A program made the position numbers and the translations under genes. This document shows, piece by piece, positions 30,759 through 54,602 of a stretch of 64,000 nucleotides of DNA. Source of the DNA: Promethearchaeota archaeon (lineage in GTDB: Archaea; Asgardarchaeota; Lokiarchaeia; Sigyniarchaeales; SOKP01); assembly GCA_048940445.1 (NCBI GenBank), contig JBHLON010000001.1:147454-211453 (forward strand), written 5' to 3'. The notes under the pieces are model-generated. The model was not told where the DNA came from and did no database searches. It worked only from the letters and a program-made list of their open reading frames with translations. Position 1 is the first letter of the stretch. The number at the start of each line of letters is the position of its first letter.

Positions 30759-31901
30759 TTATAAGAATCCTAAAAGAAATTTATTTCCTAAATTAACATT
30801 GTCTAAATATTTTTTAGCTACTTTCAAACAATTTCGTACCTGATCCTTTGGAGTAATAGGGAGGTCTTGCATTTGGTAAGCTCGGTGGAATATTAGTAAG
30901 CTATATGGTATTTTCCTGTTTATACCTCCTACAAATCTTGCAATTTGTTCTACTTCTTCATAATTGACATATCCAGGGACCATTAAGGTACATGCACTTA
31001 TTTCTGGCATAGTTTCTCCCCTGGTGCCAAAATAATTTTCTGCTAAATATTGAAAATTTTCTAGGGTCCGCTTATTACTTACACCACATAAGGAAAGATT
31101 GAGTTTTTCAAAAAAAGCTTTTAAGTCAAACTTTATATTCCCTCCAGATTCTAATGCAATCTGCATGCTTTTTTCAGCTAAATCCCTTCTTCCGCTTCCA
31201 TTCCATTCCCAACAAACTCTAAATTTTCTTTTAGGCTCTTCATTTTTAATTTTTTCCAAAATTTTATTTGCTAAATTAATTGAGAAAGGTAATTGAGGTT
31301 CAGGAGTTCCTCCAAAATAACATATACAAGTAATTTTCTTATTTTTAGCAATTTGAGTTGCTAAAATTTCGACATCAGTTAAGGATTTTTTTGATATGTA
31401 CTTATGGGAGGAATTTTGACAGAAGAGACAATTGAACGAACATCCGTATAGGAATGCAGCATAAGAATATGTGCCAAATTCAGGTCCGTCAATGTTAGAA
31501 TAGTGCGGATATCCAGAAGATGTACCTGCTGGACAAAACCACGCATTACAGCAATTGGTAGGATTAGGATCTAGATAACCATGAATATAACCCTTAGAAT
31601 GTGTAGGATAAGGTAATGAGTCATCTTTATTTTTCGATACATTTCTTAATCCACAATAGCTAGTATCTTCAGAAGATAGAATGCATTCATTAATACAAAA
31701 GTCACATTTTAATCGAATATCTGATCCTTCTGCTTTTGGAGGTTTTTGGGGTAAGTTAATCAGATTTCTAACCTGACTATGTATTGAAAGGATATAGGGT
31801 TTGATAATTTCCCAGTCCTTATTAAAAATGCACTCACGACATACTGAAAGAACCTCTGAAATGAGTTGATCATTTTTTCCACAAAATTTGCATTGCCCTA
31901 C
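30759..31901 (-). CDS. radical SAM protein (AmmeMemoRadiSam/PflX-like), 380 aa, apparent GTA start
   Basis: Frame is stop-free for 214 codons upstream of the track's TTG: (V)GQCKFCG...CREC...CDFCINEC...YCGLR...DPNPTNCC...GCSFNCLFCQN...CYFGGTP. Confidence 0.9.
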   Translation of the reverse strand, partial: VGQCKFCGKNDQLISEVLSVCRECIFNKDWEIIKPYILSIHSQVRNLINLPQKPPKAEGSDIRLKCDFCINECILSSEDTSYCGLRNVSKNKDDSLPYPTHSKGYIHGYLDPNPTNCCNAWFCPAGTSSGYPHYSNIDGPEFGTYSYAAFLYGCSFNCLFCQNSSHKYISKKSLTDVEILATQIAKNKKITCICYFGGTPEPQLPFSINLANKILEKIKNEEPKRKFRVCWEWNGSGRRDLAEKSMQIALESGGNIKFDLKAFFEKLNLSLCGVSNKRTLENFQYLAENYFGTRGETMPEISACTLMVPGYVNYEEVEQIARFVGGINRKIPYSLLIFHRAYQMQDLPITPKDQVRNCLKVAKKYLDNVNLGNKFLLGFL

Positions 31902-31902
31902 G

Positions 31903-32565
31903 TTACATCACCGATTTTTTTAGCAAAAGGTAAGTTTGACCTTTTCTTTGTTTAGGATTTTTTTTAATCATAAATCCGTCAAATCCATTAGAAGTAAATG
32001 ATGATTGAAAAAGTGATAATTCTTCCTCATTATTTGGGTAAAATTCTATTATCGTTCTCCCATTTTTCTTTAAGATTTTGTTAAGCGATTTAGTAGTACT
32101 ATCTATTGAGATAGCTTTTTCTTTATAATGATTTATGTTATGTAAAATAAAATTATATGCTGAAATAGAAATTATGTGATCTATTGATTCCGTTCTTAAA
32201 GGTAAGTGTTTAATATCAGCGAGAATTAGATTTAGATTGGAACCTTGTTCTAAATAGTGTTTTTTATTTTTAGCTAGAGTTATCATATCTAATAAAACAT
32301 CTATACCTAGAACTTTAAATCCGGAATCTATTAGCACTTCTGAAGAAAATCCAGTTCCACACCCTAAATCCAAGATTAGATAAGAATGGTTATCCAGAAT
32401 ATCCCCTCTTCCCACCATATCCAACTTTTTGTCAAATAAGTATCTGAGACAACGCATTGCAGTTTTCTTTTGATTCCTTTCCATCCATTTAGAGTTATCA
32501 TACTCATATGATTTATGACCAATATAAGAATCTGGAAATTCTGGAAGCTTATTTTTTCGCGTCAT
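31903..32565 (-). CDS. Bud23/WBSCR22-like SAM-dependent (SSU rRNA m7G) methyltransferase
   Basis: PE..Y....SYEY...Q...., ILDLGCGTGFS, IISISA, EFYP, GFDG...NP...K..YLLL match the Bud23 pattern. Confidence 0.75.
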   Translation of the reverse strand: MTRKNKLPEFPDSYIGHKSYEYDNSKWMERNQKKTAMRCLRYLFDKKLDMVGRGDILDNHSYLILDLGCGTGFSSEVLIDSGFKVLGIDVLLDMITLAKNKKHYLEQGSNLNLILADIKHLPLRTESIDHIISISAYNFILHNINHYKEKAISIDSTTKSLNKILKKNGRTIIEFYPNNEEELSLFQSSFTSNGFDGFMIKKNPKQRKGQTYLLLKKSVM

Positions 32566-32692
32566 ACAGAACAACAAATATAAAAATCAGATAAACTATT
32601 TAAATAGGTAAACGAATATATATTTGTTAAAAATAAACAACAATCACCAAATTAAGACTGATTATAATCTAATATTGAAGATAGAGAGTAAA

Positions 32693-33085
32693 ATGGCTGA
32701 GAAGAAAACTATACTGGTCGTCGACGATGAACCCGATATTGTTAACCTTACACAAAAATTTTTAGAATTAGAGAAATATAATACAATAACTTGTAACAAC
32801 GGTAAGGAAGCTTTGAAGATTGTGGAAGAAAAGTTCAGCGAAATCATCCTAATCTTACTTGATCTTATGATGCCTGGAGTTAGTGGTTATGATGTATTAC
32901 GAAACATAAAATCCAGTGATCTTTATAAAGATATATTAGTAGTTATTTTTACCGTTAAAAGTTTCAACGAAGATATTCAAAAAGGGAAAGCATTAGGAGC
33001 AGATGGATATATTACAAAACCTTTTTCAGGGAAAGATTTATTAAAGTACGTTAAAAATCTATTAAAGGAAAAAGGAAAGCTTTAA
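32693..33085 (+). CDS. single-domain response regulator (CheY-like receiver)
   Basis: ILVVDDE, ILLDLMMPGVSG, GADGYITKPF. Confidence 0.93.
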   Translation: MAEKKTILVVDDEPDIVNLTQKFLELEKYNTITCNNGKEALKIVEEKFSEIILILLDLMMPGVSGYDVLRNIKSSDLYKDILVVIFTVKSFNEDIQKGKALGADGYITKPFSGKDLLKYVKNLLKEKGKL

Positions 33086-33132
33086 GATTCACTTTCTTTT
33101 TCTTGTTTTTTAATTAACATTAAGGTACCCTT

Positions 33133-34329
33133 TTATATCACCCAAAAATAATAAACCAAAATCAAAATAATTATCGAAAATACTGAAAGAATACAAACTG
33201 TTTTTCTAATCATGTGTTTAATGTGAGTTCGAGGCATTCTATCTTCTTGATTTAGCAATTTTGGAAATAAGTTATGATCATGCGGTTCAATTTGATACCA
33301 ATATGATGTGGAAGACCAATCATCTTTTCTATGGTTGTCATGACCATGTTCTATGGATACAATTATTCCTTTATTGAAATATATTGGATCTTCTATATGG
33401 TAACGATAATAAGTAATTTTACCCCACCAGTTAAATCCTCCGGGTAAAATTGTACCATGATACGGTGCATGATACATAGTGCTCTGACTCCATGCTTGGT
33501 TAACATAATCTTCTGTTCCTGTTCCTTTTAAGGTAGGGCTTTTTTTCTGGATATCGTCATCAATAAATATCATATCATCACCTTCACCTGGCCAATTTAA
33601 AAACCATGGCATAAAAGTTATATTATCAATATCTAAATGACAACCGACATAGTGTCCTTTGCCTCTTGCTTCAAGGATTTTATAATTATACTTTAAGGGG
33701 TCTTGATTCTTACCAGAGAACATAAATTTAATTGGTTTTGTAATTTTAAACTTTTTCCCTGAGTGAGCATCTACTCTTTTTACATTTGGAGGATTCTCTC
33801 GTCGCCATTGTACATGGAATCTACCATAATAGTTATTACTCTCAATACCTTCTTCATAAATCTCATAATCAATATAATAATACATTTTAACTTTCTTTGA
33901 TGTATCATTTTCAATCGTTATTTTAAATCCATTTGAATAAGGCATTGGCCACCAACAATTAAAACCTCTTCCATTCCTAGGGCTCATCTGTAACGGCAGT
34001 GAGACAAAGTTCTTTTGCTTCCCATGCCCCATTCCGAAAAAGTCTCCAATTGGCGCCTCTACACTTGGTTTATCATTAGGTTCACCATCCCAATACATTC
34101 TAATTATCACATTCCGTAAAAAATATTTTGCCTTACAAGCCATAGTGCACCATATGTGGGTAATACATCCAACTCCATTATCACTTGCTAATAATGGCCT
34201 TTCTCCAGGACCTATAGTAATCCAGTCTACATTTCCCCCTGTTTTATCATGACTAGATATTCTTCTTCGTTTCACGAAGTCTGGTCTAATTTTAGCAATA
34301 TTGTTTAAACTTGATCTACCAATTTTCAT
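33133..34329 (-). CDS. GH172 (DUF2961) glycoside hydrolase with C-terminal TM anchor
   Basis: SSHDKTGGN, ITHIW, PIGDFFG, WPMPY, GEGD, GTGTEDY, YRYH, EHGH; hydrophobic C-terminus. Confidence 0.9.
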   Translation of the reverse strand: MKIGRSSLNNIAKIRPDFVKRRRISSHDKTGGNVDWITIGPGERPLLASDNGVGCITHIWCTMACKAKYFLRNVIIRMYWDGEPNDKPSVEAPIGDFFGMGHGKQKNFVSLPLQMSPRNGRGFNCWWPMPYSNGFKITIENDTSKKVKMYYYIDYEIYEEGIESNNYYGRFHVQWRRENPPNVKRVDAHSGKKFKITKPIKFMFSGKNQDPLKYNYKILEARGKGHYVGCHLDIDNITFMPWFLNWPGEGDDMIFIDDDIQKKSPTLKGTGTEDYVNQAWSQSTMYHAPYHGTILPGGFNWWGKITYYRYHIEDPIYFNKGIIVSIEHGHDNHRKDDWSSTSYWYQIEPHDHNLFPKLLNQEDRMPRTHIKHMIRKTVCILSVFSIIILILVYYFWVI

Positions 34330-34558
34330 AAATACTCATTTAAATTTTTAGGTGATATTAATAAAATTGTATTATAACTTAATTAAATATAAATATATCA
34401 ATTCTTAAAAAAAGCATAATAAGACTTTTCATTTTTTTTCTTTAGTTGAGTTTTTGGTCGATATCCTTATTACAGAAAACTTCCCAATTATATTATCAAA
34501 TCTAAAAATTTTTATATTTCCTAATTATTATTTAATAACAACCTAGATATGATGATCT

Positions 34559-35185
34559 ATGGCGACTGGAGGGTTTGTTCCTGAACCAGCGGAATTTAAC
34601 ACAATAATCACGATGCTGGGATGCTTATGTGCTACAGTCCAATTAGGAACAGGAATATATGCGGCATATAAGAAGAGAAAAATTGCTTTAATCAAGACTA
34701 ATGACGCTTTATTTAGAGCTCATAGAGCGTTTGGAAGTTTTGCTACAGTTTTTTACTTTTTAGGTTTATTTGCAGGATTATCTGGATTTATAGGTGCAAT
34801 CTTATTAAATAACCCCCCCTTTGAAATCTTGGATATCAGTTTTAACATTCACGTATGGCCTAGTTTCTTAGTGATGGTTGTAATCATTTGGAAGACTTTG
34901 ATCTCTTATTTCAAGAAACCTTTAGTTTATAAACAAGGTAAATGGTTAGGTATTGCAACTTTTGTTGCATGGGCTTATACATGGATCACATCAGCTGTTT
35001 CTTTTTATCTTAGGACATTACCTTCAAATCCGCAACATTCTGAGCCATTATATTTACTTGATATTGAATTAATTGTCCTCCAGATCATATTACCCTTCAT
35101 AATTGGGGTCTTAATTAGTTATTTTGTTTTAAAGGCTGCGGATAAAATTGAAAAAAAAAAATTAATTGCTAGTCAAAAGAAATAA
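34559..35185 (+). CDS. integral membrane protein with two TM histidines (cytochrome b561/DUF6529-like)
   Basis: About 5 TMs; RAHRAFG and NIHVW. Confidence 0.55.
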   Translation: MATGGFVPEPAEFNTIITMLGCLCATVQLGTGIYAAYKKRKIALIKTNDALFRAHRAFGSFATVFYFLGLFAGLSGFIGAILLNNPPFEILDISFNIHVWPSFLVMVVIIWKTLISYFKKPLVYKQGKWLGIATFVAWAYTWITSAVSFYLRTLPSNPQHSEPLYLLDIELIVLQIILPFIIGVLISYFVLKAADKIEKKKLIASQKK

Positions 35186-35766
35186 TACTGCAATTATACC
35201 CAGATTAACTTAATCACTTCAGGATTATTCCTCTTTTTACTTTTCCTAATTCAATTCTAAGCTTTTTAAAGAAAGGGTGTAACGCAATAAGAGTATGCTT
35301 TATATATTAAATTGAATAGGTCAAATATTTTTGATGAGAAATTAGTTGAAGATAAGGGTTTTGTGTATAGAAAAGTGGGAGAAGGGATTAATAACCCTTT
35401 TTAATAATTTAAAATTTTTTGTCTCAAGCTTTCACTTCGCTTTAAAGACTAAATCCTAATATTTTTGATTTAGTCCTTGAGATCTTTATTAGAATTTATT
35501 TTTTTTTTTTGTCTTCTTCTTTTTAAATATCGGAAACATGAGACAACACCATCAATGATACCTCATCCTGAGCAAAATTGCTCGTCTGATTCCGTTTCAC
35601 CAATTCTATATTTCCATTCAGACATAGATCATTCAATTTTATTAATTTATTATTTAGAGTAATAAGTTGAAATTATTAAAGCATATTTGTTATATTTAAT
35701 AATTTTAGAAACTTACTAAAATTTTGAAATATTTCGTAAAATAATATAGAAAAAAAGTGAAGCATT

Positions 35767-36033
35767 ATGGGTATAAAAGATGAACTCTCAGAAATGAGAA
35801 AAAGTATGAATCGAATGGCTGAGGAATTGCATGAGACAAATAAGGCAATCAGAGAATCATTAAAGCTAACCTCTGATACTATAAATAATATGAGTGAAAA
35901 CTTTTCCAAAACATTAGAGGAATCTCTCAAGATAATGCGGGATATGAAGATTCAAATGGATTTTAAGGACACTATATTTAAAACTCTAGGAATCGATGGC
36001 TTATTAGCTGATTTTTTGAAGAGGAAAAGATAA
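35767..36033 (+). CDS. small coiled-coil protein
   Basis: Heptad-like Met/Leu/Glu/Lys pattern; AAGTGA RBS. Confidence 0.7.
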   Translation: MGIKDELSEMRKSMNRMAEELHETNKAIRESLKLTSDTINNMSENFSKTLEESLKIMRDMKIQMDFKDTIFKTLGIDGLLADFLKRKR

Positions 36034-36038
36034 GCGCT

Positions 36039-36227
36039 CTATTCCTTTCGCCGATTTTTAAATACAAAATACAATATTATAAGAGAGATTATGTAAACTA
36101 TAGTTATAATAAACCATATGACAAAATCAGTCGTAGATTGATTAATAAGTGCTTCAATAGTTTTATATATAAAAAAAATACTAAAGAGTCCTAATAAAGT
36201 TATTCGAGAGCGTAATTGATTGTTCAT
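36039..36227 (-). CDS. small two-TM membrane protein
   Basis: Two hydrophobic helices, basic C-terminus. Confidence 0.6.
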   Translation of the reverse strand: MNNQLRSRITLLGLFSIFFIYKTIEALINQSTTDFVIWFIITIVYIISLIILYFVFKNRRKE

Positions 36228-36323
36228 AATAGACTAAATTCTCAATTCTTTATTAAATAAAATAATTTTTAAAATTATAAGTATAATACACATTATTAAA
36301 TTACGTTTTAATTGAACAATAAT

Positions 36324-36524
36324 ATGTCAAAAAATCCTCCTTTTTGTTATATTTGTGGCAAAAAATGTGAAGACCTTCTAAATGAGTGTTATTACTGTAT
36401 CTGTGACATTACGGTATGTAATGATTGTATAAATTCGGTTAAAAAAGATGAAACTACTTGGATTTGCCCACATTGTCATGAAAGCCATACTATAGAAAAA
36501 ACTAAACTGTTTCGAGACATTTAA
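36324..36524 (+). CDS. stand-alone Cys-rich zinc finger, C4C4 RING-like
   Basis: CYIC...CICDITVCNDC...WICPHC. Confidence 0.75.
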   Translation: MSKNPPFCYICGKKCEDLLNECYYCICDITVCNDCINSVKKDETTWICPHCHESHTIEKTKLFRDI

Positions 36525-36626
36525 ACATTAGATTCTTTCAAATTTTTTACCTTTAAATAAAGATATAAATAAATATAAACATTCTAATTTTCTATGTATT
36601 TAATAGATATAATTAGGTAGGACTAT

Positions 36627-37121
36627 ATGACTAAAATCTCGAAAATTTTAGAAATTGAAAATTGCAACAAAGCTAATTTATTAAAAGCAATCTATTCACC
36701 TAAATTCTGGGAAGAAATTAAACCCACTAAAAAGTTGGAAGCCCAATTCATCGCTCCTAACGTTCTTTTTACTAAAGTATATGATGAAATTAACATTATT
36801 AAGGTACCAATAGAAATGGAAGGGGAGTTAGTACTGGATGACAAAGGGGAGGAAGAAGGTAAAGGTAGATTAATTGAATTTAACGTAAGGAATAATAAAG
36901 ATGTAAAAGAGTTGGAAGGAAGATTAAGAATTAAAGAGTTGAGTTCCAATAAATCCAAAGTGGGAGTATTTATCGAGAATTTTGTATTAAGTAGTGATTT
37001 TCTGAATTTAATAGGTGGAGCTGCTGATCTTACTCTGCAACTAAAAATAACTGAGATGTTAAGAAATCTAGAAAAGTATTGTAAGACTAAAAATCTAAAC
37101 GATTTATTAGAAAAAAATTGA
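36627..37121 (+). CDS. SRPBCC/START-like fold protein
   Basis: beta-helix(W)-seven-strand-long C-terminal helix pattern. Confidence 0.5.
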   Translation: MTKISKILEIENCNKANLLKAIYSPKFWEEIKPTKKLEAQFIAPNVLFTKVYDEINIIKVPIEMEGELVLDDKGEEEGKGRLIEFNVRNNKDVKELEGRLRIKELSSNKSKVGVFIENFVLSSDFLNLIGGAADLTLQLKITEMLRNLEKYCKTKNLNDLLEKN

Positions 37122-37203
37122 TTTTCTTATACCAAAGAAATTTATTAAAGAAGGTTTATAATTTACTTAGAAGTAGTATCGAATAATTTTGGGGTAAACA
37201 GAT

Positions 37204-38052
37204 ATGAATATCTGGATTTTGGATTCACAATCTGGTATAACATTATTATATAAATCATATTTAGATTTGGTTCTCAATGAAGATTTAATTTCGGGTTTAT
37301 TAACAGCAATTAATCAGTTTACTGTCTTCGAATTAAAACAAGGTATTGAAAGTATTGATATGTCTGGCTTACGGTGGGTATACTTAGAAGATCATGAATT
37401 AAATTTACTCTTTATAGCAGCTGCGGAAAAGGATGTTAGTGCAGACATTCTAAAAGCGAGGCTAAATATAATAATGTTAACTTTCATACAACAATACGCC
37501 CAAAATAAAGAAGAATGGAAAGCTTTATGGAAAGGAAACACAGATCTTTTTAATCCATTCAAAGATGTAATAGATGAATACTATTCCCAATGGTTAACAG
37601 CTGAAAATGTAAGCACTTTAGCCGAATATTTCGACATATTAGGAGTATTCCAACAGATTTTGAATTTACTAACTAATGTTATCGAAGCGCATTTTCATCC
37701 TGATAGTAAAGAAAGAATTTATGAACTTATCGAAAGAATGTTTGCCAATTATTTAAATCATGATTATGTGCAACAACATCAAGAACTAAGAAAGTTTTCA
37801 TTTAATCGAGCTACAGGGATTAATATTATTAGTATAGATCCTAAAAATGTTGATATGATTATAGTTGAAAAACAGATTGTCAATTTAATCAGAAGGATTG
37901 TAGAGATGATTAAATCTGAGGTTGGGTATCAGAAATCCTTAAATTACTTTATAGAAGAAAATATTTTTGAATATTTAGTATCAAATTTAACATTATTAAA
38001 CGAATTAAATCTCTTCAAATTTCTATTACAACTCTTCTTGCTAAATAAATAA
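37204..38052 (+). CDS. longin-domain protein (eukaryotic-signature type) with helical C-domain
   Basis: IWILDSQSGITLLYKSY...EDLISGLLTAINQF...IESIDM...LLFIAAA...LNIIMLTFIQQY...WKGNTDLFNPF. Confidence 0.8.
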   Translation: MNIWILDSQSGITLLYKSYLDLVLNEDLISGLLTAINQFTVFELKQGIESIDMSGLRWVYLEDHELNLLFIAAAEKDVSADILKARLNIIMLTFIQQYAQNKEEWKALWKGNTDLFNPFKDVIDEYYSQWLTAENVSTLAEYFDILGVFQQILNLLTNVIEAHFHPDSKERIYELIERMFANYLNHDYVQQHQELRKFSFNRATGINIISIDPKNVDMIIVEKQIVNLIRRIVEMIKSEVGYQKSLNYFIEENIFEYLVSNLTLLNELNLFKFLLQLFLLNK

Positions 38053-38127
38053 GAATTTATCAAGATTTATTAAAAACAATTTATTTAAATTATTAATAGT
38101 AATCTCCTCCATAGCGTCGTTGTACAA

Positions 38128-39456
38128 ATGAATGTTCCAGTTCTTATCATTCTATTCATACTTTTTATCTTAATAATATTAAGTTACTCTATTAAAAATA
38201 CTGATTTTGTTGCTATTTCCTTACTTTGCATGTTCACGGGAGCAACTATTGCTTTTGTGGCTTTAAACGTTCAATTTACGGATTTTATTCAAATGGTCGA
38301 GTGGCAAGCAATAATCATAATTCTTAGTATGAGTTTAATAACCAAAATAGCTCAAGATTCAAATATCTTAGAATACGTAGCTGTTAAATTATTTAAACTT
38401 TCTAAAGGAAATCAAAGAATATTCCTATATCTTCTGTGTATTATTACTACTTTATTAGCAGCTATTATTACTGATGTGGTGGTTGTTTTGATTTTAGCTC
38501 CAGTAGTGGTCCGGTTATGTCATTTTTTAAAAATAAGAGCTGGTACTTATTTGTTGGGTATGACAATATGTATAAATATTGGTTCAATGATGACTCCCTT
38601 TTCAAGTGGAGAAAACATCATCATTACTACTTACACTTGGACGTCAGCAGTACCTGAGTTGAATACCCTATATTTTATCCAATATTATTGGATATTTGCC
38701 TTCTTATTGCTCTTTTTAACAGTATTTCTGATTGATAAATTCTTATTGTCAAAAGAACCTAAAATCGAAGAACAGCAAAAGCAATTTGTATTAGAATTAG
38801 TAGATGCTGATATTATGATAAAAAATAAAAAATATTTCTATTTCAATAGTATTGCCATAATTATTACAATAGCCCTATTTGCAATCCTTCCTGTTCTCTA
38901 TTTAACAGCCATAATCTCTGCTTTAATTCTTGTAATTGTGAATAAGAGGTTTACTAAAAAGCCAATGGGAGAATTACTTAGGGATATTGAATGGGAAATT
39001 ATATTTTTCTTCATCGCTCTATATGTCATTGTCGGTTCTCTTATACAAGCAGGATTTGATGAAATTTTTCAAACAATACCTTTTCAACTCATAGATCCAA
39101 TACTACTTTCCTTTCTACTCCTCATTGCAATTTCTCTAATTTCGGGATTTGTAGCTAACACTCCAACCGCTTTAATATTCTTGCCTATAATTAATACTTT
39201 AATATCTCCAGGAGGATCTTTTGCACCTTTTCCTTATATTCCTCTCGTATTTTCCTTAATCGTTGCGATTAATTTAGGAGGTAATTTTATACCACAAGGA
39301 GCAGCAGCAGATATGATGACTTTAAAAGTAGCAAGAGATAATGATGTGGAAAATCTAAATTATAGAAGGCTATTAAAGATGGGTGCAATTTTTGCAACAA
39401 TTCATTTATTATGCGCAATGCTTTATTTAGTTATTCTTATACCATTTTCAGGATAG
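38128..39456 (+). CDS. IT-superfamily (ArsB/NhaD/SLC13, P-protein-like) permease
   Basis: NIGSMMTPFSSGENII, SGFVANTPT, NLGGNFIPQGAAA. Confidence 0.85.
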   Translation: MNVPVLIILFILFILIILSYSIKNTDFVAISLLCMFTGATIAFVALNVQFTDFIQMVEWQAIIIILSMSLITKIAQDSNILEYVAVKLFKLSKGNQRIFLYLLCIITTLLAAIITDVVVVLILAPVVVRLCHFLKIRAGTYLLGMTICINIGSMMTPFSSGENIIITTYTWTSAVPELNTLYFIQYYWIFAFLLLFLTVFLIDKFLLSKEPKIEEQQKQFVLELVDADIMIKNKKYFYFNSIAIIITIALFAILPVLYLTAIISALILVIVNKRFTKKPMGELLRDIEWEIIFFFIALYVIVGSLIQAGFDEIFQTIPFQLIDPILLSFLLLIAISLISGFVANTPTALIFLPIINTLISPGGSFAPFPYIPLVFSLIVAINLGGNFIPQGAAADMMTLKVARDNDVENLNYRRLLKMGAIFATIHLLCAMLYLVILIPFSG

Positions 39457-39465
39457 TTTTTTCTT

Positions 39466-45801: not shown

Positions 45802-45840
45802 ATCTCTTTTTATTATTTTCTGCAATTTATTGAAGAAATC

Positions 45841-46146: not shown

Positions 46147-46213
46147 TTCTTTCCACTTCTTTCTTATAATAAAATTCAAAAAGATTTCTATGTAATTATG
46201 CAATTCCTAAACT

Positions 46214-46468
46214 CTACAATGCTTCATATTGCCGAGGTGACCTTTCATAATAGACTTTTAGTTTGTCAGGATACTTGATTTTGATCCTCTTTATAACTTT
46301 AGCAAGTGAACTTCTATGTTCATATCCCATCGCAGCAGACCACTCTGCCGCTGTAGACGTTCCTAATTCCTTAAGTTTCTCGAGACACATTAATTCATAT
46401 GTCCTAAAAACGGCTTTCTTTGGTTTAATAATATTGTCCATACTTGAGATTATTTTATCTAATGCCAT
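46214..46468 (-). CDS. small winged-helix DNA-binding protein
   Basis: LEKLKELGTSTAAEWSAAMGY...SSLAKVIKRI...PRQY. Confidence 0.7.
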   Translation of the reverse strand: MALDKIISSMDNIIKPKKAVFRTYELMCLEKLKELGTSTAAEWSAAMGYEHRSSLAKVIKRIKIKYPDKLKVYYERSPRQYEAL

Positions 46469-47135
46469 ACTCAATTCACATGCTAAATTTTTTTTATTAT
46501 TTTATGGTGGGACTTATCTCCCACTGAAATCATTTTAATATTAAATAGTTTATTTAAATATTTAAGTTTTATTATTGTGAAGAAGATAGACATTTTGTTT
46601 AGATATTTTTTCAAATATTAAAGAATTTTCATTATTACTTGAAATCCTATTTAAAGCTTTAGTTTTATGGTGAACAAATTCCTATTACATAAAAGCTGTA
46701 TTAGAAAAAATCTAAAAAATCTTTAGCCAATATTTAAAAGGGCAACTTAATTTTTTTCAATTCTCAATTTAAATAATTTTTCATTATAATTATACTTAAT
46801 TCGACAGAAATTTATTACAAAAAGTGGCTAGAAGTAAAGAATCAAAACGCTGTAAAACCGGGCTTATTTGATTTCATGAAAAATAATCTATGTCCTCTTG
46901 TTTCTTAGGATAATATTCAATCCCTATAATTTGCATAATCTAAAGTAGCAATTACTTTTTTTTCAAAATACAATCTTAAAATTTATAAGATTATTAAACT
47001 CTTTGAGCATTAGATAAAGAATGTCGGAATTATGCTTTTTTTACTTTTAGACTTACTTGTGACTTTTTTCATGTTAATCATTATGTTTCAGTTTGTTAAA
47101 GGATTTCCATAAGATTTATATATGAAAATAAATAT

Positions 47136-47167
47136 TTGTTCTATATCGAACGTTCGGAGTAGAACAA
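47136..47167. promoter_or_regulatory. palindromic operator (two tandem GTTC-N6-GAAC boxes)
   Basis: TTGTTCTA-TAT-CGAACGTTCG-GAG-TAGAACAA lying just downstream of the TTTATATA box at about 47115-47122. Confidence 0.7.
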
Positions 47168-47215
47168 TTAATTAAAAAATTAAATTATGGATAAGTAAGT
47201 AGAGGTGAAGTTAAA

Positions 47216-47995
47216 ATTTCAGAGATATTATCTTATCGAATTGTTGAATTAAATGAAAAGAATATTGATGAATACGACCTATTTTGCTTAAAAGAAAAAG
47301 ATAAGGAAGGTTATAAAAATAAAGTTAACTGGCTTAAAAAACGTTTTAAAGAAGGCTTACACTATAAATTGCTAATGATTCAAGAAGAGGAACAAAATTA
47401 TATGTCAGGAGGATTTATAGAATATATCCCTGGTGAATCAGTTTGGCGCGGCATTCTTGCTCCTGGCTGGATGGTCATACATTGCATATTAGTCAATAAT
47501 AAATATCACCATCTCGAATTTGGTTCAAAATTATTACAGGAATGTTATAATGATGCTAAGGGAATGAATGGTGTAGTAATTCTAACATCACATGAAGGAG
47601 GTTGGGAGCCCACAAATTCCCTTTTTTTAAAACATGGTTTTCAGAAAGTTGATGAAATTTCACCTTTCGAACTTTATGCGAAGAAATTTATTGAAGATGC
47701 ACCTCTTCCAAAATTTAATCGATCTCCAAAGCTAAATTATAAAAAATTTGAGGGAAAACTTCTTGGAATTAAAACTCAACAATGTCCTTATGTTGTACAT
47801 ATGACTGGTTTACTTGAGGATTTAGCTAAAGAGATTAAGATGGAATTGGTAATAGAAGATTTGAAAGATTCTAAAAGCGTCCAAGAAGACAGTTTGCATC
47901 CTTATGCGACTTTTTGTGTATATTTCAACGGAGATTTTATTACCCGAATGCCCTATTATAAAGAAGATATTACTAATCATATAAATAAGAAATAA
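47216..47995 (+). CDS. YoaP-domain GNAT-like protein, apparent ATT start
   Basis: Open frame upstream of the track start encodes IVELNEKNIDEYDLFC...GYKNKVNWLKKRFKEGL; GFIEYIPGE, IHC, QCPY. Confidence 0.85.
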   Translation: MSEILSYRIVELNEKNIDEYDLFCLKEKDKEGYKNKVNWLKKRFKEGLHYKLLMIQEEEQNYMSGGFIEYIPGESVWRGILAPGWMVIHCILVNNKYHHLEFGSKLLQECYNDAKGMNGVVILTSHEGGWEPTNSLFLKHGFQKVDEISPFELYAKKFIEDAPLPKFNRSPKLNYKKFEGKLLGIKTQQCPYVVHMTGLLEDLAKEIKMELVIEDLKDSKSVQEDSLHPYATFCVYFNGDFITRMPYYKEDITNHINKK

Positions 47996-48011
47996 ATAAG
48001 GTAAAGTGTAT

Positions 48012-48473
48012 ATGGATTTAGATGAAGTAAAGAGATCATGTATAGAGTTAATAGAAAATTCCCTTGTTGCATATTTTTCTACAATTGATTCCGAAGGCTT
48101 TCCTATAACAAGAGCATTACTAAACACACGATATAAGGAACGATATCCTGAATTTTCTGAATTCTATGATGATCTGGAAGATAAATATGTAATTTATTTC
48201 TCAACAAATACTAGCTCTTCTAAGATAAGCCACATAAAGGAAAATCCTAAAGTTGCTGTTTATTTTTGCGACACTGAACAATTTAAAGGAGTAATGTTTG
48301 GTGGTGAGGCTGATATAGTTGAAGATATGGAACTAAAGCGACAATTCTGGTTAGAGAGATCTATTAGGTATTATCCAAAGGGATTGGAAGATCCTGATTA
48401 TACTATACTTCGATTTAGGCCTAATGAAGGACGATTCTACTATAATTTAAACCAAGTTGAATTTAAAATTTAA
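48012..48473 (+). CDS. pyridoxamine 5'-phosphate oxidase family (general stress) protein
   Basis: STIDSEGFP, YFSTNTSSSK...NPKV, YYPKGLEDPDY. Confidence 0.88.
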   Translation: MDLDEVKRSCIELIENSLVAYFSTIDSEGFPITRALLNTRYKERYPEFSEFYDDLEDKYVIYFSTNTSSSKISHIKENPKVAVYFCDTEQFKGVMFGGEADIVEDMELKRQFWLERSIRYYPKGLEDPDYTILRFRPNEGRFYYNLNQVEFKI

Positions 48474-48493
48474 TTAATTAGGTGAATTTTAAA

Positions 48494-49300
48494 TTGGTAA
48501 AAATTGAAAGAGGACATGTCAATGGAAGAGATGTCCGATTGGCTTATATTGATTTTGGAGGATCAGGAGAATCTGTTGTCCTATTACATGGACTTATGTC
48601 TAGAGCAGCCAATTGGTATGAGGTGGCACTCTGGTTAAGAGAAAACTACCATGTTATTGCATTTGATCAAAGAGGGCATGGAAGAAGTGAAAAATTAGAT
48701 TCTGATTATTCAAGAGATATAATGATTGAAGATATTGCAATCGCCATGAATGAGCTAGGCATACATCATAGTATTGTGATTGGACATTCTATGGGGGGTT
48801 CGATAGCTTGGGGTTTGGCTGTCTTACACCCACACCTAGTTAAAGCTCTGATTATTGAAGATAAAAGTGCTCAAGCAGCCCCAATGGAAGCTCTTGATGA
48901 ATGGGAAAAATTTTTTATATCATGGCCGGTTCCATTCAGTTGTTTAAAAGAAGCACGTTTATTTTTTGGAAATCTACATCCCACTTATGCAGATCACTTT
49001 ATAGAACTACTTGAAGAAAAAGAATTGGGATATTATCCAATTTTCAAATTTCAACATCTCCTTAAAATATTAAGTTTAAGTTTTGGAAAATCAAAATGGG
49101 AAGAATTAGAACAAATAAAATGTCCTACACTGATAATTAAAGGGGGATCTAGTCAATTTAAAAGTGAACAAGCCGAAAAAATGTCAAAAATAATAAAAAA
49201 TTGTCAACTTATTGAAATTCCTAACGCTGGCCATGTAGTGCACGATGATCAGCCTGAATTATATAAAGTTGCAGTAAATAATTTTCTGATGAGATTATAG
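48494..49300 (+). CDS. alpha/beta hydrolase
   Basis: LLHG, DQRGHG, GHSMGG, AGHVVH; TTG after GGTGA. Confidence 0.92.
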   Translation: MVKIERGHVNGRDVRLAYIDFGGSGESVVLLHGLMSRAANWYEVALWLRENYHVIAFDQRGHGRSEKLDSDYSRDIMIEDIAIAMNELGIHHSIVIGHSMGGSIAWGLAVLHPHLVKALIIEDKSAQAAPMEALDEWEKFFISWPVPFSCLKEARLFFGNLHPTYADHFIELLEEKELGYYPIFKFQHLLKILSLSFGKSKWEELEQIKCPTLIIKGGSSQFKSEQAEKMSKIIKNCQLIEIPNAGHVVHDDQPELYKVAVNNFLMRL

Positions 49301-49328
49301 ATATTCGTAGAATTTAGGAATTAGAAAA

Positions 49329-49808
49329 ATGCTTGAAAGTAAAGAAGAAAAAAAGGAAATGTTAAGAGAAGGAGGATTCTTAATGGTAAAGATCCGCAAA
49401 TTATCAGAGCGGATTTTTGCAAAAATACTCCGAGATTTTAATGTTACTGAAATTACTTCTGCTCAAGGAAGAGTAATGTTTCCACTTTGGCAAAAAGATG
49501 ACATTTCTTTCCAAGAGCTTAAACGGAAAACCTCGTTAAGTAAAGCTACCCTGTCTCATATGTTGGATAATCTTGAAAAATCAAACCACATAAAAAGAGT
49601 ACCTGTTGCAAATGATAAAAGAACTATTAACATAAAGTTAACTAAAAAGAACAAAGTATTACAGAAAAAATTTCTTCAAGTTTCTTATCAAATGAGAGAC
49701 ATCTATTATAGTGGCTTTTTTGAAAAGGAGATTGATGAGTTTGAAATCTATTTAAGAAGAATTCTTGAAAATTTAACGAAATATACCGAGGAAAACAAGA
49801 AAAGATAA
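49329..49808 (+). CDS. MarR family transcriptional regulator
   Basis: QGRVMFPL...SKATLSHMLDNLEK...DKRT...LT. Confidence 0.9.
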   Translation: MLESKEEKKEMLREGGFLMVKIRKLSERIFAKILRDFNVTEITSAQGRVMFPLWQKDDISFQELKRKTSLSKATLSHMLDNLEKSNHIKRVPVANDKRTINIKLTKKNKVLQKKFLQVSYQMRDIYYSGFFEKEIDEFEIYLRRILENLTKYTEENKKR

Positions 49809-49946
49809 TCTTGAATTTAGATCATACAACATAAGCCATATTATGATGCTCAAGATATGTATTAACTATTTTACACTTACAAGTAATTAGCCGGAAAGAA
49901 TTTGTTAACGGTAAAGCTTTTATTTATAACAGTAATAATGTTTTTT

Positions 49947-50240
49947 ATGCCAATATATATTCTTGCAACTAAATTGCAAAACCCTGATTTGGTCGAGAGA
50001 AGGAAAGAACAGGGTGAAAAGTTCCTAAAGTTAGTAAGAGAGAAAGTTCCAGAGATTAGATGGCTAGCCCATTATGCAATTCTTGGTCCTTATGACTTTA
50101 TTGACATTTTTGAAGTTGATAATGAAAGAGAAGCTGCTAAGGTTTCATTATTGTCTCGTGCTGCAGGAGCAATGTTCGCTGAAAGCTGGACTGCTATTCC
50201 TTACTCAGACTTTTTAGGACTCTTGAATGGTTTAAAATAA
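49947..50240 (+). CDS. GYD domain protein
   Basis: MPIYILATKL...YAILGPYDFIDIFE...ESWTA; ATG about 20-25 nt after TTTAT box (leaderless). Confidence 0.85.
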   Translation: MPIYILATKLQNPDLVERRKEQGEKFLKLVREKVPEIRWLAHYAILGPYDFIDIFEVDNEREAAKVSLLSRAAGAMFAESWTAIPYSDFLGLLNGLK

Positions 50241-50271
50241 ATAGGTATAAAAAAGGATAAAAATAGGAATT

Positions 50272-50469
50272 TTACAGAAATTCTTTTTTCATTATCTTAA
50301 TAAATTCAGGGTCTCTTTTTTCAAATGGAATCCTTTCTCTTCCGGTATAAATATAGTAGGAATTGTGATTTTTAAAAAACTCAGAGAAGGGAATGATTAG
50401 TTCAGAAATATTGGGGAATAATTTATCATAAAAATCCTTATTATTTACTTTAACTATTCCTATACTCAT
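50272..50469 (-). CDS. small hypothetical protein
   Basis: 65-aa ORF downstream of Lrp on the same strand; no recognised motif. Confidence 0.45.
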   Translation of the reverse strand: MSIGIVKVNNKDFYDKLFPNISELIIPFSEFFKNHNSYYIYTGRERIPFEKRDPEFIKIMKKEFL

Positions 50470-50542
50470 AAAGGTAAAATTATATTTTAGTAATATAAAA
50501 GAATAGTCCCGACAAATTTAGTAATTATATTGTATATAACTT

Positions 50543-51025
50543 CTATGACTCATTTTCAAGTAAATTTACAAGAGAACTTTCTTCTTTAATTACATTCAAT
50601 ACTATGTGAGTATTTGTTCTCTCAACATAAGGAGATTGATGAAATTTTTTAATCATTTTACTGAGATCATCTCTAGATTTGAATCGTGCAAACACTAATG
50701 CATCGTAGGTCCCTGTAATATCATAGACTGCAAAAATATTAGGATATTGAGCAATTTTTTCTTCAACATCAAACATCTTTCCTTTAGAAATAGTGACCTC
50801 AATTATAGCGATTATAGTAAAACCCAGTTTTTCATAATCAATCTGTACACCATAATTCTTTATAATTCCATTGTCTACTAAATCCTCGATATGTTTTTTG
50901 ATTGTGACCGGTGATTTTCCTAATTCATCTGAAATCGCATGATAAGTCTTTCGCCCATCTTGACTTAGAATTTTTAAAATATCTAGGTCAACATCTTCAA
51001 ATTTCAGTTTGTTAGATTCGCTCAT
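50543..51025 (-). CDS. Lrp/AsnC family regulator
   Basis: DLDILKILSQDGR...IDYEKLG...ITGTYD...TNTHIVL. Confidence 0.93.
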   Translation of the reverse strand: MSESNKLKFEDVDLDILKILSQDGRKTYHAISDELGKSPVTIKKHIEDLVDNGIIKNYGVQIDYEKLGFTIIAIIEVTISKGKMFDVEEKIAQYPNIFAVYDITGTYDALVFARFKSRDDLSKMIKKFHQSPYVERTNTHIVLNVIKEESSLVNLLENES

Positions 51026-51166
51026 AAAAAGTTTAATGATAAAATAATTTAATAGTTTTTATTTTTCTTTCTAAGTCTTATATAAAGAATAATATGTTTT
51101 AAATTTCTTACTTGCTTTTGTAATTTAGAATTATTTTTTAAGTAGTAGAGGGTAAGTTTATCATAG

Positions 51167-52711
51167 ATGGTGAAAAATAAATATTTATCAAACAGTTCCA
51201 TTATTCCAGTTCCTTTAAGATTGAAGGTGAAAAAAGGTTATTTTGTATTAGATTCTAAAACTAACATTTACTGTGATTTATCCTTCCAAAATTTAGGATA
51301 CTATTTAAGAGACTTGCTAAAACCTGCTACAGGTTTTGATTTATCAATAAAACTACTCACTGAAATGGAAACAAGAAAAAATTCTATAACGTTAAAACTG
51401 AATAATGGAAGCAAGCATATTCCAACGGAAGGATATAAGTTGATGGTAACTCCAGATAAAATTGAAATAGAATGTAGAAATTCAAAAGGCCTATTTTATG
51501 GTATTCAAACTTTACGCCAACTTTTTCCTTCTGAAATAGAATCTTCACAACAAGTAAGTATAGATTGGAATATACCATGCGTTATGATTGAGGATTCCCC
51601 TCGATTCTCATGGAGAGGATTTATGTTAGATGAAGCACGACACTTTTTCGGGAAACAAGAAGTAAAAAAAATCCTCGATATGATGGCTTTACTAAAATTT
51701 AACACATTTCATTGGCATTTAACTGACAATCAAGGATGGAGAATTGAGATTAAAAACTTTCCTCTGTTAATTGAAATCGGATCAAAAAGAAAATCAACTA
51801 GGTTGTTTCTAAATCGCAGAAAGTCAGACGGAAGACCATATATGGGTTACTACTCTCAAGAAGATTTGAGAGAAATAGTAGCTTATGCTAAGGAAAGGTA
51901 TATAAAGGTCATCCCTGAGATTGATATTCCTGGTCATATATCTGCTGCGCTGGCAGCTTATCCTGAGTTAGCTTGTAATCGAGCATCGTTTGAGGTTAGT
52001 ACTCAAATAGGAATCCTTCCTGAGGTCTTATGTGTAGGTAAAGAATCTGTATTCAATTTTATCGAGAGTATATTTAAAGAGATAATAGACATGTTTCCTT
52101 CGGACTTAATCCATATCGGTGGTGATGAAGTTTTAACAAAAAGATGGAAAGAATGTGAATTATGTCAGAAGAGATTGATAACAGAAAATTTGAATTCTGA
52201 GAGAGAATTACAAACTTATTTTTCTAATAGAATTTCAAAGTTTTTAGAGAACAATGGAAAACGTGTGATTATGTGGAACGATATATTAGATAATAATATA
52301 AAAGACTCAATAATTGGACAATATTGGATTGAAGATATTAACCAAGTTATAGAACAAATAAAAAATGACAGAAAGATGATAATGTCAGAGATGGAATCAG
52401 TTTATTTTGATCATGGATATAATAGAACCTCCCTTTCAAAAAGTTATAATTACGATCCCATTCCAAAGTTAGGTGGTATAAAATACGATAAAGATATTCT
52501 AGGGATTGAGGCTTGTCTTTGGACGGAATTAATTTTAAATGATAAAGATTTAGAATATAAATTATTTCCCAGATTAATAGCTATTTCAGAAAATGCTTGG
52601 AGCTTAAAACAAAATAAAGATTTCTTACCATTTGAAGCAAGATTAACTCAATTCAAAAAACGAATGGATTACTTAAATATAAGGTATGCTGAACAAGATG
52701 AATGGTTTTAA
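51167..52711 (+). CDS. beta-N-acetylhexosaminidase (GH20)
   Basis: PRFSWRGFMLDEARHF, HWHLTDNQGWR, PEIDIPGH, HIGGDE, LWTE. Confidence 0.95.
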   Translation: MVKNKYLSNSSIIPVPLRLKVKKGYFVLDSKTNIYCDLSFQNLGYYLRDLLKPATGFDLSIKLLTEMETRKNSITLKLNNGSKHIPTEGYKLMVTPDKIEIECRNSKGLFYGIQTLRQLFPSEIESSQQVSIDWNIPCVMIEDSPRFSWRGFMLDEARHFFGKQEVKKILDMMALLKFNTFHWHLTDNQGWRIEIKNFPLLIEIGSKRKSTRLFLNRRKSDGRPYMGYYSQEDLREIVAYAKERYIKVIPEIDIPGHISAALAAYPELACNRASFEVSTQIGILPEVLCVGKESVFNFIESIFKEIIDMFPSDLIHIGGDEVLTKRWKECELCQKRLITENLNSERELQTYFSNRISKFLENNGKRVIMWNDILDNNIKDSIIGQYWIEDINQVIEQIKNDRKMIMSEMESVYFDHGYNRTSLSKSYNYDPIPKLGGIKYDKDILGIEACLWTELILNDKDLEYKLFPRLIAISENAWSLKQNKDFLPFEARLTQFKKRMDYLNIRYAEQDEWF

Positions 52712-52762
52712 ATTCTTTATAGATAATTCTCAAAAAGCATTATATTACGTTTCTTATTTAAC

Positions 52763-53140
52763 TTAATTTTTAAAAGCTTTATAAGTCTTAATTTTAAAGC
52801 AATTACAACAGTAAAAAGGAATCCTTATATACCAATCAGAAAATTTGGGTATACTCAATGGAGCAATCCATATTTTCACAAACTCCTTTAAACTTAAACT
52901 GAATTCTCTTTTAGTATAATCATATGTATTGGAAAAATATAATTTATCTTTACAGTCTTTATTAAAGCAACGATGAGGGAAGTTATTTGTTAAAATTAGG
53001 TTTAATAAATTAAACAATTCTCTTTGCTTTTCTACTTGATCATAATCTAATTTAATTAATAATTCATGGAGACTGATATCTTTATTTATATAAGCATAGA
53101 ATAAATCTTCGCAATACCAATCATCATATCTAGAGGTAAT
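52763..53140 (-). CDS. Cys-rich hypothetical protein (CxxxxC...FYCCxC), apparent ATT start
   Basis: Frame open 41 codons upstream of the track's TTG, to AAGTGA-tctaaa-ATT. Confidence 0.6.
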   Translation of the reverse strand: MTSRYDDWYCEDLFYAYINKDISLHELLIKLDYDQVEKQRELFNLLNLILTNNFPHRCFNKDCKDKLYFSNTYDYTKREFSLSLKEFVKIWIAPLSIPKFSDWYIRIPFYCCNCFKIKTYKAFKN

Positions 53141-53384
53141 TTTAGATCACTTAATCATTGAATATCTTTTCTTCTTTTTAATTTTATTCTGGAACAAAGT
53201 ATTTAATTAACATATTCCAAATTAAGTTTATTAAAAAAATAATCGTTTTTATGCTTCTTTATGCTATTTAAATTTCCTATTTTTTTCGTTAATTATATTA
53301 TATTCCATTAAGTATAAATAGAAAAAAGAGATTATTAAATGGAAGAGTGTTTTAAGATTAGAATTAAAGAGAACAGGATATGCT

Positions 53385-53585
53385 ATGAGTTCCAATTTTA
53401 AAATTAAGATTACAATGTTAATTCTTTTTTTAATCTATGCTAGTTGCACTGCTTTTATGGTAAGAATAGAGTTAATTCCATTAAATATGGTCATTCTTGA
53501 GACTTTAGAAACTTTTGTTATTTTTATAATTATAATTATTTTTTTTCATAAAATTGAATCTATGAATGAAAGAAAGAGAAAATAA
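53385..53585 (+). CDS. small two-TM membrane protein
   Basis: Two hydrophobic segments, basic tail. Confidence 0.5.
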   Translation: MSSNFKIKITMLILFLIYASCTAFMVRIELIPLNMVILETLETFVIFIIIIIFFHKIESMNERKRK

Positions 53586-53636
53586 AGGAAGATTTTTCTA
53601 TATTTAAGCACAGTAGTATATAAGAAGATTTTAATC

Positions 53637-54326
53637 ATGAATCCAAAAAAGCTTGTAAATAACAAGAAATTAAAACCAAAATTGCAAGTAGCTCTAGATC
53701 TCGAAATTTTGGAAGACGCTTTAGATCTAGCTAACAAGGTTGCTCCTTTTGTAGACATTTTGGAAGCAGGAACTCCCTTAGTTAAATCTGAGGGAATCCG
53801 AGCCATTAAAGAATTAAAAAAGGCACATCCTGATAAATTAGTATGTGCTGACTTAAAAACCGCTGATGCAGGTTATCTTGAAGTAAAGATGGCTGCTAAG
53901 GCAAATGCAGATATTGTCACTATCCTTGCTGATGCGTATAATATTACAATTGAAGAATCTTTACGTGCAGCAAATGAATTCAATGTTGAAATCATGGCAG
54001 ATTTAATTGTATCTCGATCACCTACTATAAGATTAGCAGAAATCGTAAATCTTCATTATAAAGACACATCATTACATTATGTCGCAGTACATAGCGGTCT
54101 TGATCGTCAAGCATCTCGACAGCCTCCATTTTTTGAAGTAGAATCTGTAGGTCGTATCCGTGATCATCCAAAGTTAGCAGTAGCTGGAGGGATTCAGGTT
54201 ACTGATATTCCAAAGTTAGTATCATATCCTATAACTATCATTATTGTAGGTGGAGCAATAACCCATTCAGAGAATCCCAGTAGAGTTGCTGAACAGATTC
54301 AAAATGCAATTAATAAACATGCTTAA
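53637..54326 (+). CDS. hxlA: 3-hexulose-6-phosphate synthase (OMPDC/HUMPS family)
   Basis: LQVALD, ILEAGTPL, ADLKTADAG, HSGLDRQ, AVAGGI, IVGGAIT. Confidence 0.88.
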   Translation: MNPKKLVNNKKLKPKLQVALDLEILEDALDLANKVAPFVDILEAGTPLVKSEGIRAIKELKKAHPDKLVCADLKTADAGYLEVKMAAKANADIVTILADAYNITIEESLRAANEFNVEIMADLIVSRSPTIRLAEIVNLHYKDTSLHYVAVHSGLDRQASRQPPFFEVESVGRIRDHPKLAVAGGIQVTDIPKLVSYPITIIIVGGAITHSENPSRVAEQIQNAINKHA

Positions 54327-54434
54327 ATTTTTAAAATCAGTCTTAACAGCTAAAAATAAATTTAAATATAGTAAGATACATAATTAAAATTGTAAACAAT
54401 TTTACTTCAAATTATATAAAAGGAAGTGAAGTAA

Positions 54435-54602
54435 ATAAAAATAAAAGTATGTTTCAAATGTCATGAATATGTAAATATTCATGAAACGAAGTATAACAAT
54501 ATAGAACAGTTAAAAATCTTTGATTCTAAGCATTCTGGGCATCCAGTTCAGATTGTAAATGAAGAAGAAATAAATAAAGAGCAATGGAAAAAAATTTCAT
54601 AA
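54435..54602 (+). CDS. 55-aa zinc-finger protein (CxxC...HxxH), apparent ATA start
   Basis: (I)KIKVCFKCHEYV...FDSKHSGHPVQIV; in-frame TAA immediately precedes ATA; GGAAGTGA 5 nt upstream; T-run downstream. Confidence 0.7.
   Translation: MKIKVCFKCHEYVNIHETKYNNIEQLKIFDSKHSGHPVQIVNEEEINKEQWKKIS

Follow-up and report, generated by a model that had tools for sequence, protein, structure and literature searches.

Four Genes Without a Canonical Start Codon

The window, a stretch of 64,000 nucleotides (G000:C101:147454-211453), belongs to a metagenome-assembled genome (MAG) of a Promethearchaeota archaeon, which comprises 3.64 Mb in 139 contigs with 30% GC. Four of its protein-coding frames, starting near 31901 and 53140 on the minus strand and near 47216 and 54435 on the plus strand, are closed by an in-frame stop and contain no canonical start codon (ATG, GTG or TTG) before the conserved N-terminus. 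On this point direct reading agreed with the original prediction, and it agreed as well on the placement of GTA, ATT, ATT and ATA 5-7 nucleotides (nt) behind a (G/A)GTGA motif at all four sites. As judged from the comparisons below, translation most likely begins at ATA, ATT or ATC (once at GTA) behind a ribosome binding site (RBS) in the four genes of the window and in about 80 across the genome. The ordinary starts that had been cited as comparators also matched on re-reading, namely GGTGA-7-ATG at 4791 (4779..4793, plus strand), GTGA-7-ATG at 46468 and GGTGA-8-TTG at 48494. Orthologs came from 30 relatives and from a set in which each species is represented by a single genome; the relatives carry the labels Promethearchaeota or Promethearchaeia (Lokiarchaeia-type Asgard archaea). 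The ratios of nonsynonymous to synonymous substitution rates (dN/dS) were computed against the nearest relative, with dS of 0.35-1.2.

The first of these genes (30759..31901, minus strand, 380 codons plus stop) encodes a radical-SAM protein resembling glycyl-radical activases, with an N-terminal CxxC...CxxC segment. Pfam placed Radical_SAM at residues 152-324 and Fer4_12 at residues 148-246, and every NCBIfam activase model stayed under its cut-off. The frame is open over 30759..31907 and is closed by the TGA at 31910-31908, which lies inside the Shine-Dalgarno (SD) sequence GGTGA (31908..31912, minus strand). This motif can base-pair with the 16S 3' end GGATCACCTCC of genus members and is conserved 5-6 nt ahead of the start in the ATA, GTA and GTG orthologs. 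At the start position stands GTA (31899..31901, minus strand), 6 nt after GGTGA, and the first canonical codon of the frame, TTG 31259, follows 214 codons downstream. A start there, at residue 215, would remove the cluster motif, since the domain begins at about residue 148. The whole gene had a dN/dS of 0.076, and codons 2-214 had one of 0.106.

The start codon was compared in 50 Promethearchaeota orthologs of the radical-SAM gene at the site x-G-x-C-K-F-C-G. It was ATG in 28, ATA in 16, TTG in 3, GTA in 2 and GTG in 1. GTGA was present 4-7 nt upstream of the start in 15 of the 16 ATA alleles, in both GTA alleles and in the GTG allele, while it was found in 1 of the 28 ATG alleles and in none of the 3 TTG alleles. 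Thus 18 of 19 ATA, GTA or GTG alleles carried the SD, compared with 1 of 31 ATG or TTG alleles (Fisher p 2e-11, a value computed over kin that are not independent). In the protein tree, two clades, one of 7 and one of 11 species, have retained ATA; the GTA pair, which consists of the window genome and its nearest relative, was nested in one ATA clade, and the sole GTG in the other. From this nesting and from the lack of GTA enrichment across the genome, GTA 31901 is read as a one-off exception derived from ATA and not as a general start codon. Six records (L047, L059, L065, L081, L091 and L093) fell inside the Promethearchaeota radical-SAM clades under other labels, namely Odinarchaeota, Hodarchaeota, Hermodarchaeota and one "Nanopelagicaceae bacterium". 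These odd labels are probably wrong record titles or mixed bins.

Upstream of the radical-SAM gene lies a class-I SAM methyltransferase gene (31903..32577, minus strand), the TAA stop of which (31905-31903) ends 1 nt before GTA. At every orthologous locus a few nt at most separate the methyltransferase stop from the start of the radical-SAM gene, and in the ATA alleles this stop was usually the TGA of the radical-SAM SD.

The second gene (47216..47995, plus strand) starts with ATT 47216, has 259 codons plus stop and showed weak Pfam matches to GNAT/YoaP-like acetyltransferases. Its frame is open over 47195..47995 and closed by an in-frame TAA at 47192-94. The SD sequence GAGGTGA (47202..47208, plus strand) is a 7-nt match with an aligned spacing of 7, and the first canonical codon lies 51 codons in. 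The SD-7-ATT arrangement was identical in the nearest relative, and a paralog in G002 likewise lacks a canonical start and has ATT. In other homologs the equivalent M-x-x-I-I-E-L-N position is occupied by ATG, so that the canonical codon at the homologous position is known through paralogs and distant homologs. The dN/dS was 0.148 for the gene and 0.127 for codons 2-51.

The smallest gene (54435..54602, plus strand) encodes a CxxC...H protein of 55 codons plus stop from ATA 54435, with a TAA immediately upstream. The SD sequence GGAAGTGA (54422..54429, plus strand) stands 5 nt before ATA, and there are zero canonical start codons in the whole 55-codon frame. The SD was present as (G)GA(A/G)GTGA in 10 of 11 orthologs; in G005 it was GGGGAGGT with a 9-nt spacing. 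The start codon was ATA in the window genome, G018, G010 and G016, ATT in G017, GTG in G008 and G002, and ATG in G007, G013, G011 and G005. The spacing was mostly 5 nt and was 9 nt in two ATG species, and the ATA and ATT species have TAA immediately upstream. Against the nearest relative, the proportions of nonsynonymous (pN) and synonymous (pS) differences were 0.09 and 0.79, respectively. Of 18 genus genomes, 16 have a conserved member of the family, and Promethearchaeota clusters of 60-68 amino acids in the Atlas matched the protein with 0.94-0.96, while no Pfam or NCBIfam family was found for it. The protein is a member of a multi-copy small-protein family that is seemingly restricted to Promethearchaeota; three more distant paralogs lie in the same genome (G000:C89:161-301, C32:803-943 and C100:8848-8988).

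The fourth gene (52763..53140, minus strand) has 125 codons from ATT 53140 and encodes a Cys-rich protein, the function of which was not assigned by family search, as no family was found in Pfam, NCBIfam or the Atlas. The frame is open over 52763..53146 and closed by the TGA at 53149-53147, which lies inside the SD sequence GTGATC (53145..53150, minus strand, by direct reading); 6 nt separate ATT from the A of GTGA in this motif. The first canonical codon lies 41 codons in. The gene was present in just 4 genomes of the genus, and all 4 showed GTGA(T)-5/6-ATT. In the three relatives, a GTG within the SD motif is in frame and is itself a possible start; in the window genome that GTG is out of frame. 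The dN/dS was 0.141 for the gene and 0.106 for codons 2-41. A three-codon mini-frame, ATG-ATT-AAG-TGA (53147-53158, minus strand), lies in frame directly upstream of ATT 53140, and its TGA is part of the SD. Stop-codon read-through from this mini-frame was considered and rejected: the TGA belongs to the conserved SD, and the relatives do not have that ATG arrangement.

Genome-Wide Enrichment of ATH Codons at Shine-Dalgarno Spacing

The genome-wide set consisted of 3143 non-shadow open reading frames (ORFs) with a minimum length of 90 codons. In each of them, the in-frame codons close to the 5' end were scored for a match of at least 5 nt to GGAGGTGATC at aligned spacing, and ATA, ATT and ATC were taken together as ATH. 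Within the first 15 codons, 121 ATH codons were observed at spacing 5-7, compared with about 41 expected from the other non-start codons, an odds ratio (OR) of 3.0 (p 3e-16). At spacing 6, where the frame is cleanest and the TGA of the SD closes the ORF, the OR for ATH was 4.4 (p 2e-12). The counts at spacing 5-7 were 161 for ATG, 70 for TTG, 26 for GTG, 58 for ATT, 45 for ATA, 18 for ATC and 9 for ACG; at control spacings they were about 37 for ATT, 27 for ATA, 6 for ATC and 3 for ACG. The codons AAA, AAT, TTA, GAA, TAT and TTT dropped to about half of their control values at spacing 5-7.

By single spacings, ATH codons numbered 44 at 5 and 51 at 6, compared with 14-36 elsewhere, and the AT-rich control codons dipped at the same place. 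ATH and TTG peaked sharply at spacing 5-6, while ATG was used from 4 to 9 and also peaked at 5-6. An SD match of at least 6 nt was found for 42% of the ATH starts and 30% of the ATG starts (p 0.03). The excess of ATH corresponds to about 80 genes, which is about 3% of the ORFs and about a quarter of the SD-led starts. The original prediction had proposed that initiation is positioned by the SD with a relaxed start codon, and this was borne out by the GTGA in 15 of 16 ATA compared with 1 of 28 ATG radical-SAM alleles; the dependence on the SD was likewise confirmed, as ATH was confined to spacing 5-6(7) and ATG tolerated 4-9. Its further proposal that non-canonical starts recur held for ATA and ATT and failed for GTA, which is a single derived case.

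ACG was also enriched at spacing 5-7 (OR 4.7, p 0.0015). Two genes with an ACG start behind an SD were seen: GcvT (G000:C69:1944-3038, plus strand), in which GCV_T position 1 falls at residue 13 and the next canonical codon lies 31 codons in, and a type I phosphodiesterase (G000:C53:2569-3876, minus strand), in which model position 2 falls at residue 4 and the next canonical codon lies 41 codons in.

In the Pfam test, 20 candidates from elsewhere in the genome were scanned as proteins that begin at the ATH, ACG or GTA codon. In 11-12 of the 20, Pfam model positions 1-5 fell between residues 4 and 37, in most cases no later than residue 13, and the next canonical start in these lay 20-72 codons downstream. 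The supported candidates included V-ATPase D, a Rab-like GTPase, GcvT (ACG), the phosphodiesterase (ACG), an ADP-forming acyl-CoA synthetase, a RagA/Arf-like GTPase, MvhG, CobO, an acyl-CoA ligase and AOR. The Rab-like GTPase would lose its P-loop if the next canonical start were used. Genes expected to be essential or central, such as pheT, V-ATPase D and hydrogenase subunits, share the feature. The expectation that many genes are truncated or missed genome-wide was therefore upheld, with about 80 genes and with Pfam domains truncated by the next canonical start.

Two further genomes from other families of the order were examined over 400 kb each. G026, a complete genome with 31% GC, had a weak excess of 13 ATH codons compared with 4.7 expected (p 0.001), 1-3 of them convincing; in G027 (53% GC) there was no ATH excess. 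This AT-rich genus seems to show the trait most strongly.

16S rRNA, Initiator tRNA and aIF1 in the Genus

The 16S 3' end GGCTGGATCACCTCC was found in genus members, and GGAGGTGATC is therefore the full SD complement. In six genus members, there was one initiator tRNA gene per genome, with a standard GGGCUCAUAACCC anticodon arm, the anticodon CAU and A1:U72, and exactly one GGGCTCATAACCC site per genome. No altered initiator anticodon and no second initiator was found in these six genomes. The gene of aIF1 opens with TGA AAA AAG AGT ATT in about 14 genus members, without a canonical codon before the zinc-binding motif. At the aligned M-P-K-D position of sister genera, the start was ATA in g5, TTG in g2 and ATG in g4 and g8.

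Searches of the assembly of the window genome returned no 16S gene, no initiator tRNA motif and no aIF1 (the last by a lineage hidden Markov model and tblastn), and ARAGORN and RF00005 detected just 13-18 tRNAs in it. The same three elements were likewise missing from the two closest near-complete relatives, and G017 and G018 gave no aIF1 match either. In the relatives G008 (C3), G011 (C86) and G016 (C70), the distance from aIF1 to the 16S gene is about 10 kb, and that to the initiator tRNA gene is about 25 kb; the genes that flank aIF1 had paralog-level matches only in the window genome. A true loss of aIF1 in the subclade was considered and is unsupported, since the rRNA-adjacent neighbourhood of aIF1 is missing too and an unassembled region is the simpler account. 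Probably, this region is systematically unassembled or unbinned, rather than its genes being lost.

Two side observations concern the tRNAs. The initiator tRNA genes of L172, L173, L174 and L176 (G011, G005, G016 and G009, respectively) carry an insertion in the T-arm region, presumably an intron, and ARAGORN misses them because of it. In the window genome, ARAGORN called a tRNA-Ile with the anticodon UAU and a 63-nt intron (G000:C72:26564-26700, plus strand). If this gene is real, AUA would be decoded by a UAU tRNA and not solely by an agmatidine-modified CAU tRNA.

Evaluation of Alternative Explanations

It is highly probable, from the comparison of start sites across orthologs, that these are real genes translated from a near-cognate codon placed by the SD, which would be ATA or ATT, once GTA, and elsewhere ATC and occasionally ACG. 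Three other accounts deny such a start at all. Assembly or sequencing errors that changed ATG into ATA, ATT or GTA could be suspected in a MAG of 139 contigs; yet MAGs from other species, assembled independently, carry identical codons at these positions (ATA in 16 and GTA in 2 radical-SAM genes, ATA or ATT in 5 of the 55-codon genes), and the genome-wide enrichment is specific to ATH at SD spacing 5-6. The retention of the feature in independent MAGs of relatives excludes assembly error, to which we assign practically no probability. That the loci are decaying pseudogenes is extremely improbable. The loss of ATG is a common first lesion, but the frames are intact (380, 259, 125 and 55 codons), their dN/dS is 0.076-0.148 with the N-terminal parts equally constrained, ATA persists across whole clades, and essential or central genes share the feature. 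The orthologs are also not all ATG, and ATG, GTG, TTG, ATA and ATT interchange at the homologous codon. In these respects, the checks that accompanied the original prediction (homologous N-termini, assembly error and gene decay, the last with dN/dS of 0.08-0.15) all came out in favor of functional genes. Gene finders limited to ATG, GTG and TTG would instead place the start at the first downstream canonical codon and treat the upstream open frame as an untranslated leader, and at 53140 an 84-codon product is conceivable. We consider this very unlikely: such starts would delete the radical-SAM cluster region and 51 constrained codons of the GNAT/YoaP-like gene, the 55-codon frame offers no canonical codon whatever, the upstream parts evolve as coding sequence (dN/dS 0.106, 0.127 and 0.106), and in 11-12 of 20 other genes the Pfam model begins upstream of the canonical codon.

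Two further accounts accept the unusual codons and explain their use in another way. In one, they work solely through translational coupling, by termination and reinitiation, and not through de novo SD-led initiation. At 31901 the methyltransferase stop ends 1 nt before GTA and both genes abut at all orthologous loci; the stop of the ATA alleles is usually the TGA of the SD, and such an arrangement may keep the doubly mismatched GTA usable. But 47216 and 53140 follow intergenic regions without an upstream gene on the same strand, and 105 nt separate 54435 from the gene before it. A same-strand ORF ended at most 30 nt upstream of just 29% of the ATH starts compared with 35% of the SD-led ATG starts; coupling is thus no more frequent for ATH than for ATG and is not required. 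As the sole route, it is improbable. In the other, the decoding itself would have changed, through a change in the anticodon of the initiator, through an additional initiator or through a start with isoleucine by an elongator tRNA. ATA, ATT and ATC are indeed all isoleucine codons, and ARAGORN calls the intron-bearing tRNA-Ile(UAU). However, the six genus members each have one standard initiator-type gene, a statement at the level of DNA, where base modifications are invisible. ACG and GTG are also used as starts, and ATH and ATG replace each other at homologous sites, as would fit a single initiator tRNA that reads near-cognate codons. A dedicated decoding change of this kind is therefore quite improbable.

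Several points weigh against SD-placed near-cognate initiation as set out above. Initiation at these codons is deduced from sequence comparison, and the related genomes are non-independent samples. The evidence on the 16S 3' end, the initiator tRNA and aIF1 comes from relatives in the genus and not from the window's own genome. The count of about 80 genes depends on how the ORF set was built for this analysis and on the demand for an exact match to the SD. GTA was not significantly enriched at spacing 5-7 (6, 2 and 0, compared with 4-10 at control spacings; OR 0.7), and the two other GTA candidates in the genome have an in-frame GTG three codons upstream; the sole argument for the use of GTA at 31901 would be the continued purifying selection on the gene. 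The in-frame GTG of the relatives makes 53140 the weakest of the four sites, with moderate support. Feedback control through aIF1, which is taken up below, is speculative.

Proposed Mechanism of Near-Cognate Initiation

We propose that the duplex between an SD of the GGAGGTGATC type and the 16S 3' end would set the near-cognate codon in the ribosomal P site, with an optimal spacing of 5-6(7) nt. The ordinary initiator tRNA (CAU, A1:U72) would then read the codon with a third-base mismatch, and the protein would begin with methionine. Start-codon proofreading would be permissive in the genus. This permissiveness may stem from aIF1 being kept at a low, self-limiting level, by analogy with bacterial infC. 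Under the mutation pressure toward AT (30% GC), ATG may have changed to ATA or ATT wherever the SD allowed it. In the radical-SAM gene, an ancestral ATA would have gone on to GTA by an A-to-G change; this GTA would still be in use, probably weakly, and the methyltransferase stop 1 nt away perhaps helps its use.

A broader version of this proposal is that the discrimination of the third base is relaxed genus-wide, that ATA, ATT and ATC are regular, inherited starts in about a quarter of the SD-led genes including essential ones, that a self-limiting, ATT-started aIF1 sets this state and that GTA is usable in it. Taken as a whole, we regard this version as possible and rather doubtful.

Relation to Known Systems and Significance

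In bacteria, SD-led AUU and AUA starts are known, classically in infC (encoding IF3) and pcnB of E. coli. The genes described here are alike in that a codon with a mismatch at the third base stands behind an SD and is read with a normal initiator tRNA. As with infC, the gene of a fidelity factor itself has a near-cognate start, namely the ATT of aIF1 in the genus relatives. In contrast, the bacterial case concerns a handful of genes with IF3 as the proofreader, whereas here about 80 genes are involved and the factors are aIF1 of the eukaryotic type, aIF1A and aIF2; moreover, the feedback through aIF1 is hypothetical here. Mitochondria also use AUA and AUU as start codons, with a modified wobble base in tRNA-Met and without SD sites. 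An AT-rich genome and ATA and ATT as regular starts are common to both, while the codon is positioned by an SD in the present genus.

A case from the same phylum is the tubulin gene atubA of a Lokiarchaeial lineage (Kariarchaeaceae), for which a "likely rare ATT start codon" with an RBS was noted (PMC13394414, 2026). There, too, the deposited protein is too short, an upstream ATT restores the conserved N-terminal strand and the RBS lies at a plausible distance. It differs from the present results in being a single gene, treated in the methods of a structural paper, with no genome-wide count, codon turnover or SD dependence. Ribosome profiling of Haloferax volcanii placed about 30% of putative alternative initiation sites at near-cognate codons (PMC7261190); those sites are alternative or novel and were set aside to limit false positives, and they are not the sole starts of conserved housekeeping genes. 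Reviews describe SD sequences as rare in Lokiarchaea and leave ATH starts unmentioned (PMC12993045, PMC7531240). Our literature search found no systematic description of ATH starts in Asgard archaea. The suggestion that the trait might be undescribed was thus nearly true, apart from the one Lokiarchaeial tubulin with an ATT start (PMC13394414).

Gene callers restricted to ATG, GTG and TTG would truncate or miss about 3% of the proteins of this genome. Some of these proteins would lose functional N-termini, among them hydrogenase motifs, the P-loops of GTPases and the cluster region of the radical-SAM protein. This directly affects the lists of eukaryotic signature proteins in Asgard archaea from which eukaryogenesis is argued; small GTPases are concerned here, and a tubulin in published work. 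These archaea have initiation factors of the eukaryotic type, yet near-cognate codons appear routine where the SD fixes the position, and the system would show how the stringency of start-codon selection can drift when it is based on aIF1/eIF1. If aIF1 does limit itself, it would be an archaeal, eIF1-type counterpart of the bacterial infC control.

Cultured Lokiarchaeia now exist, and the claim is testable in them. The organism of G026 may offer a tractable test case through its MazF/PemK-like gene (G026:C1:1349291-1349620, plus strand). In this gene ATT stands 6 nt behind GGTGA, the next canonical codon lies 30 codons in, and ATT appears to be the start.

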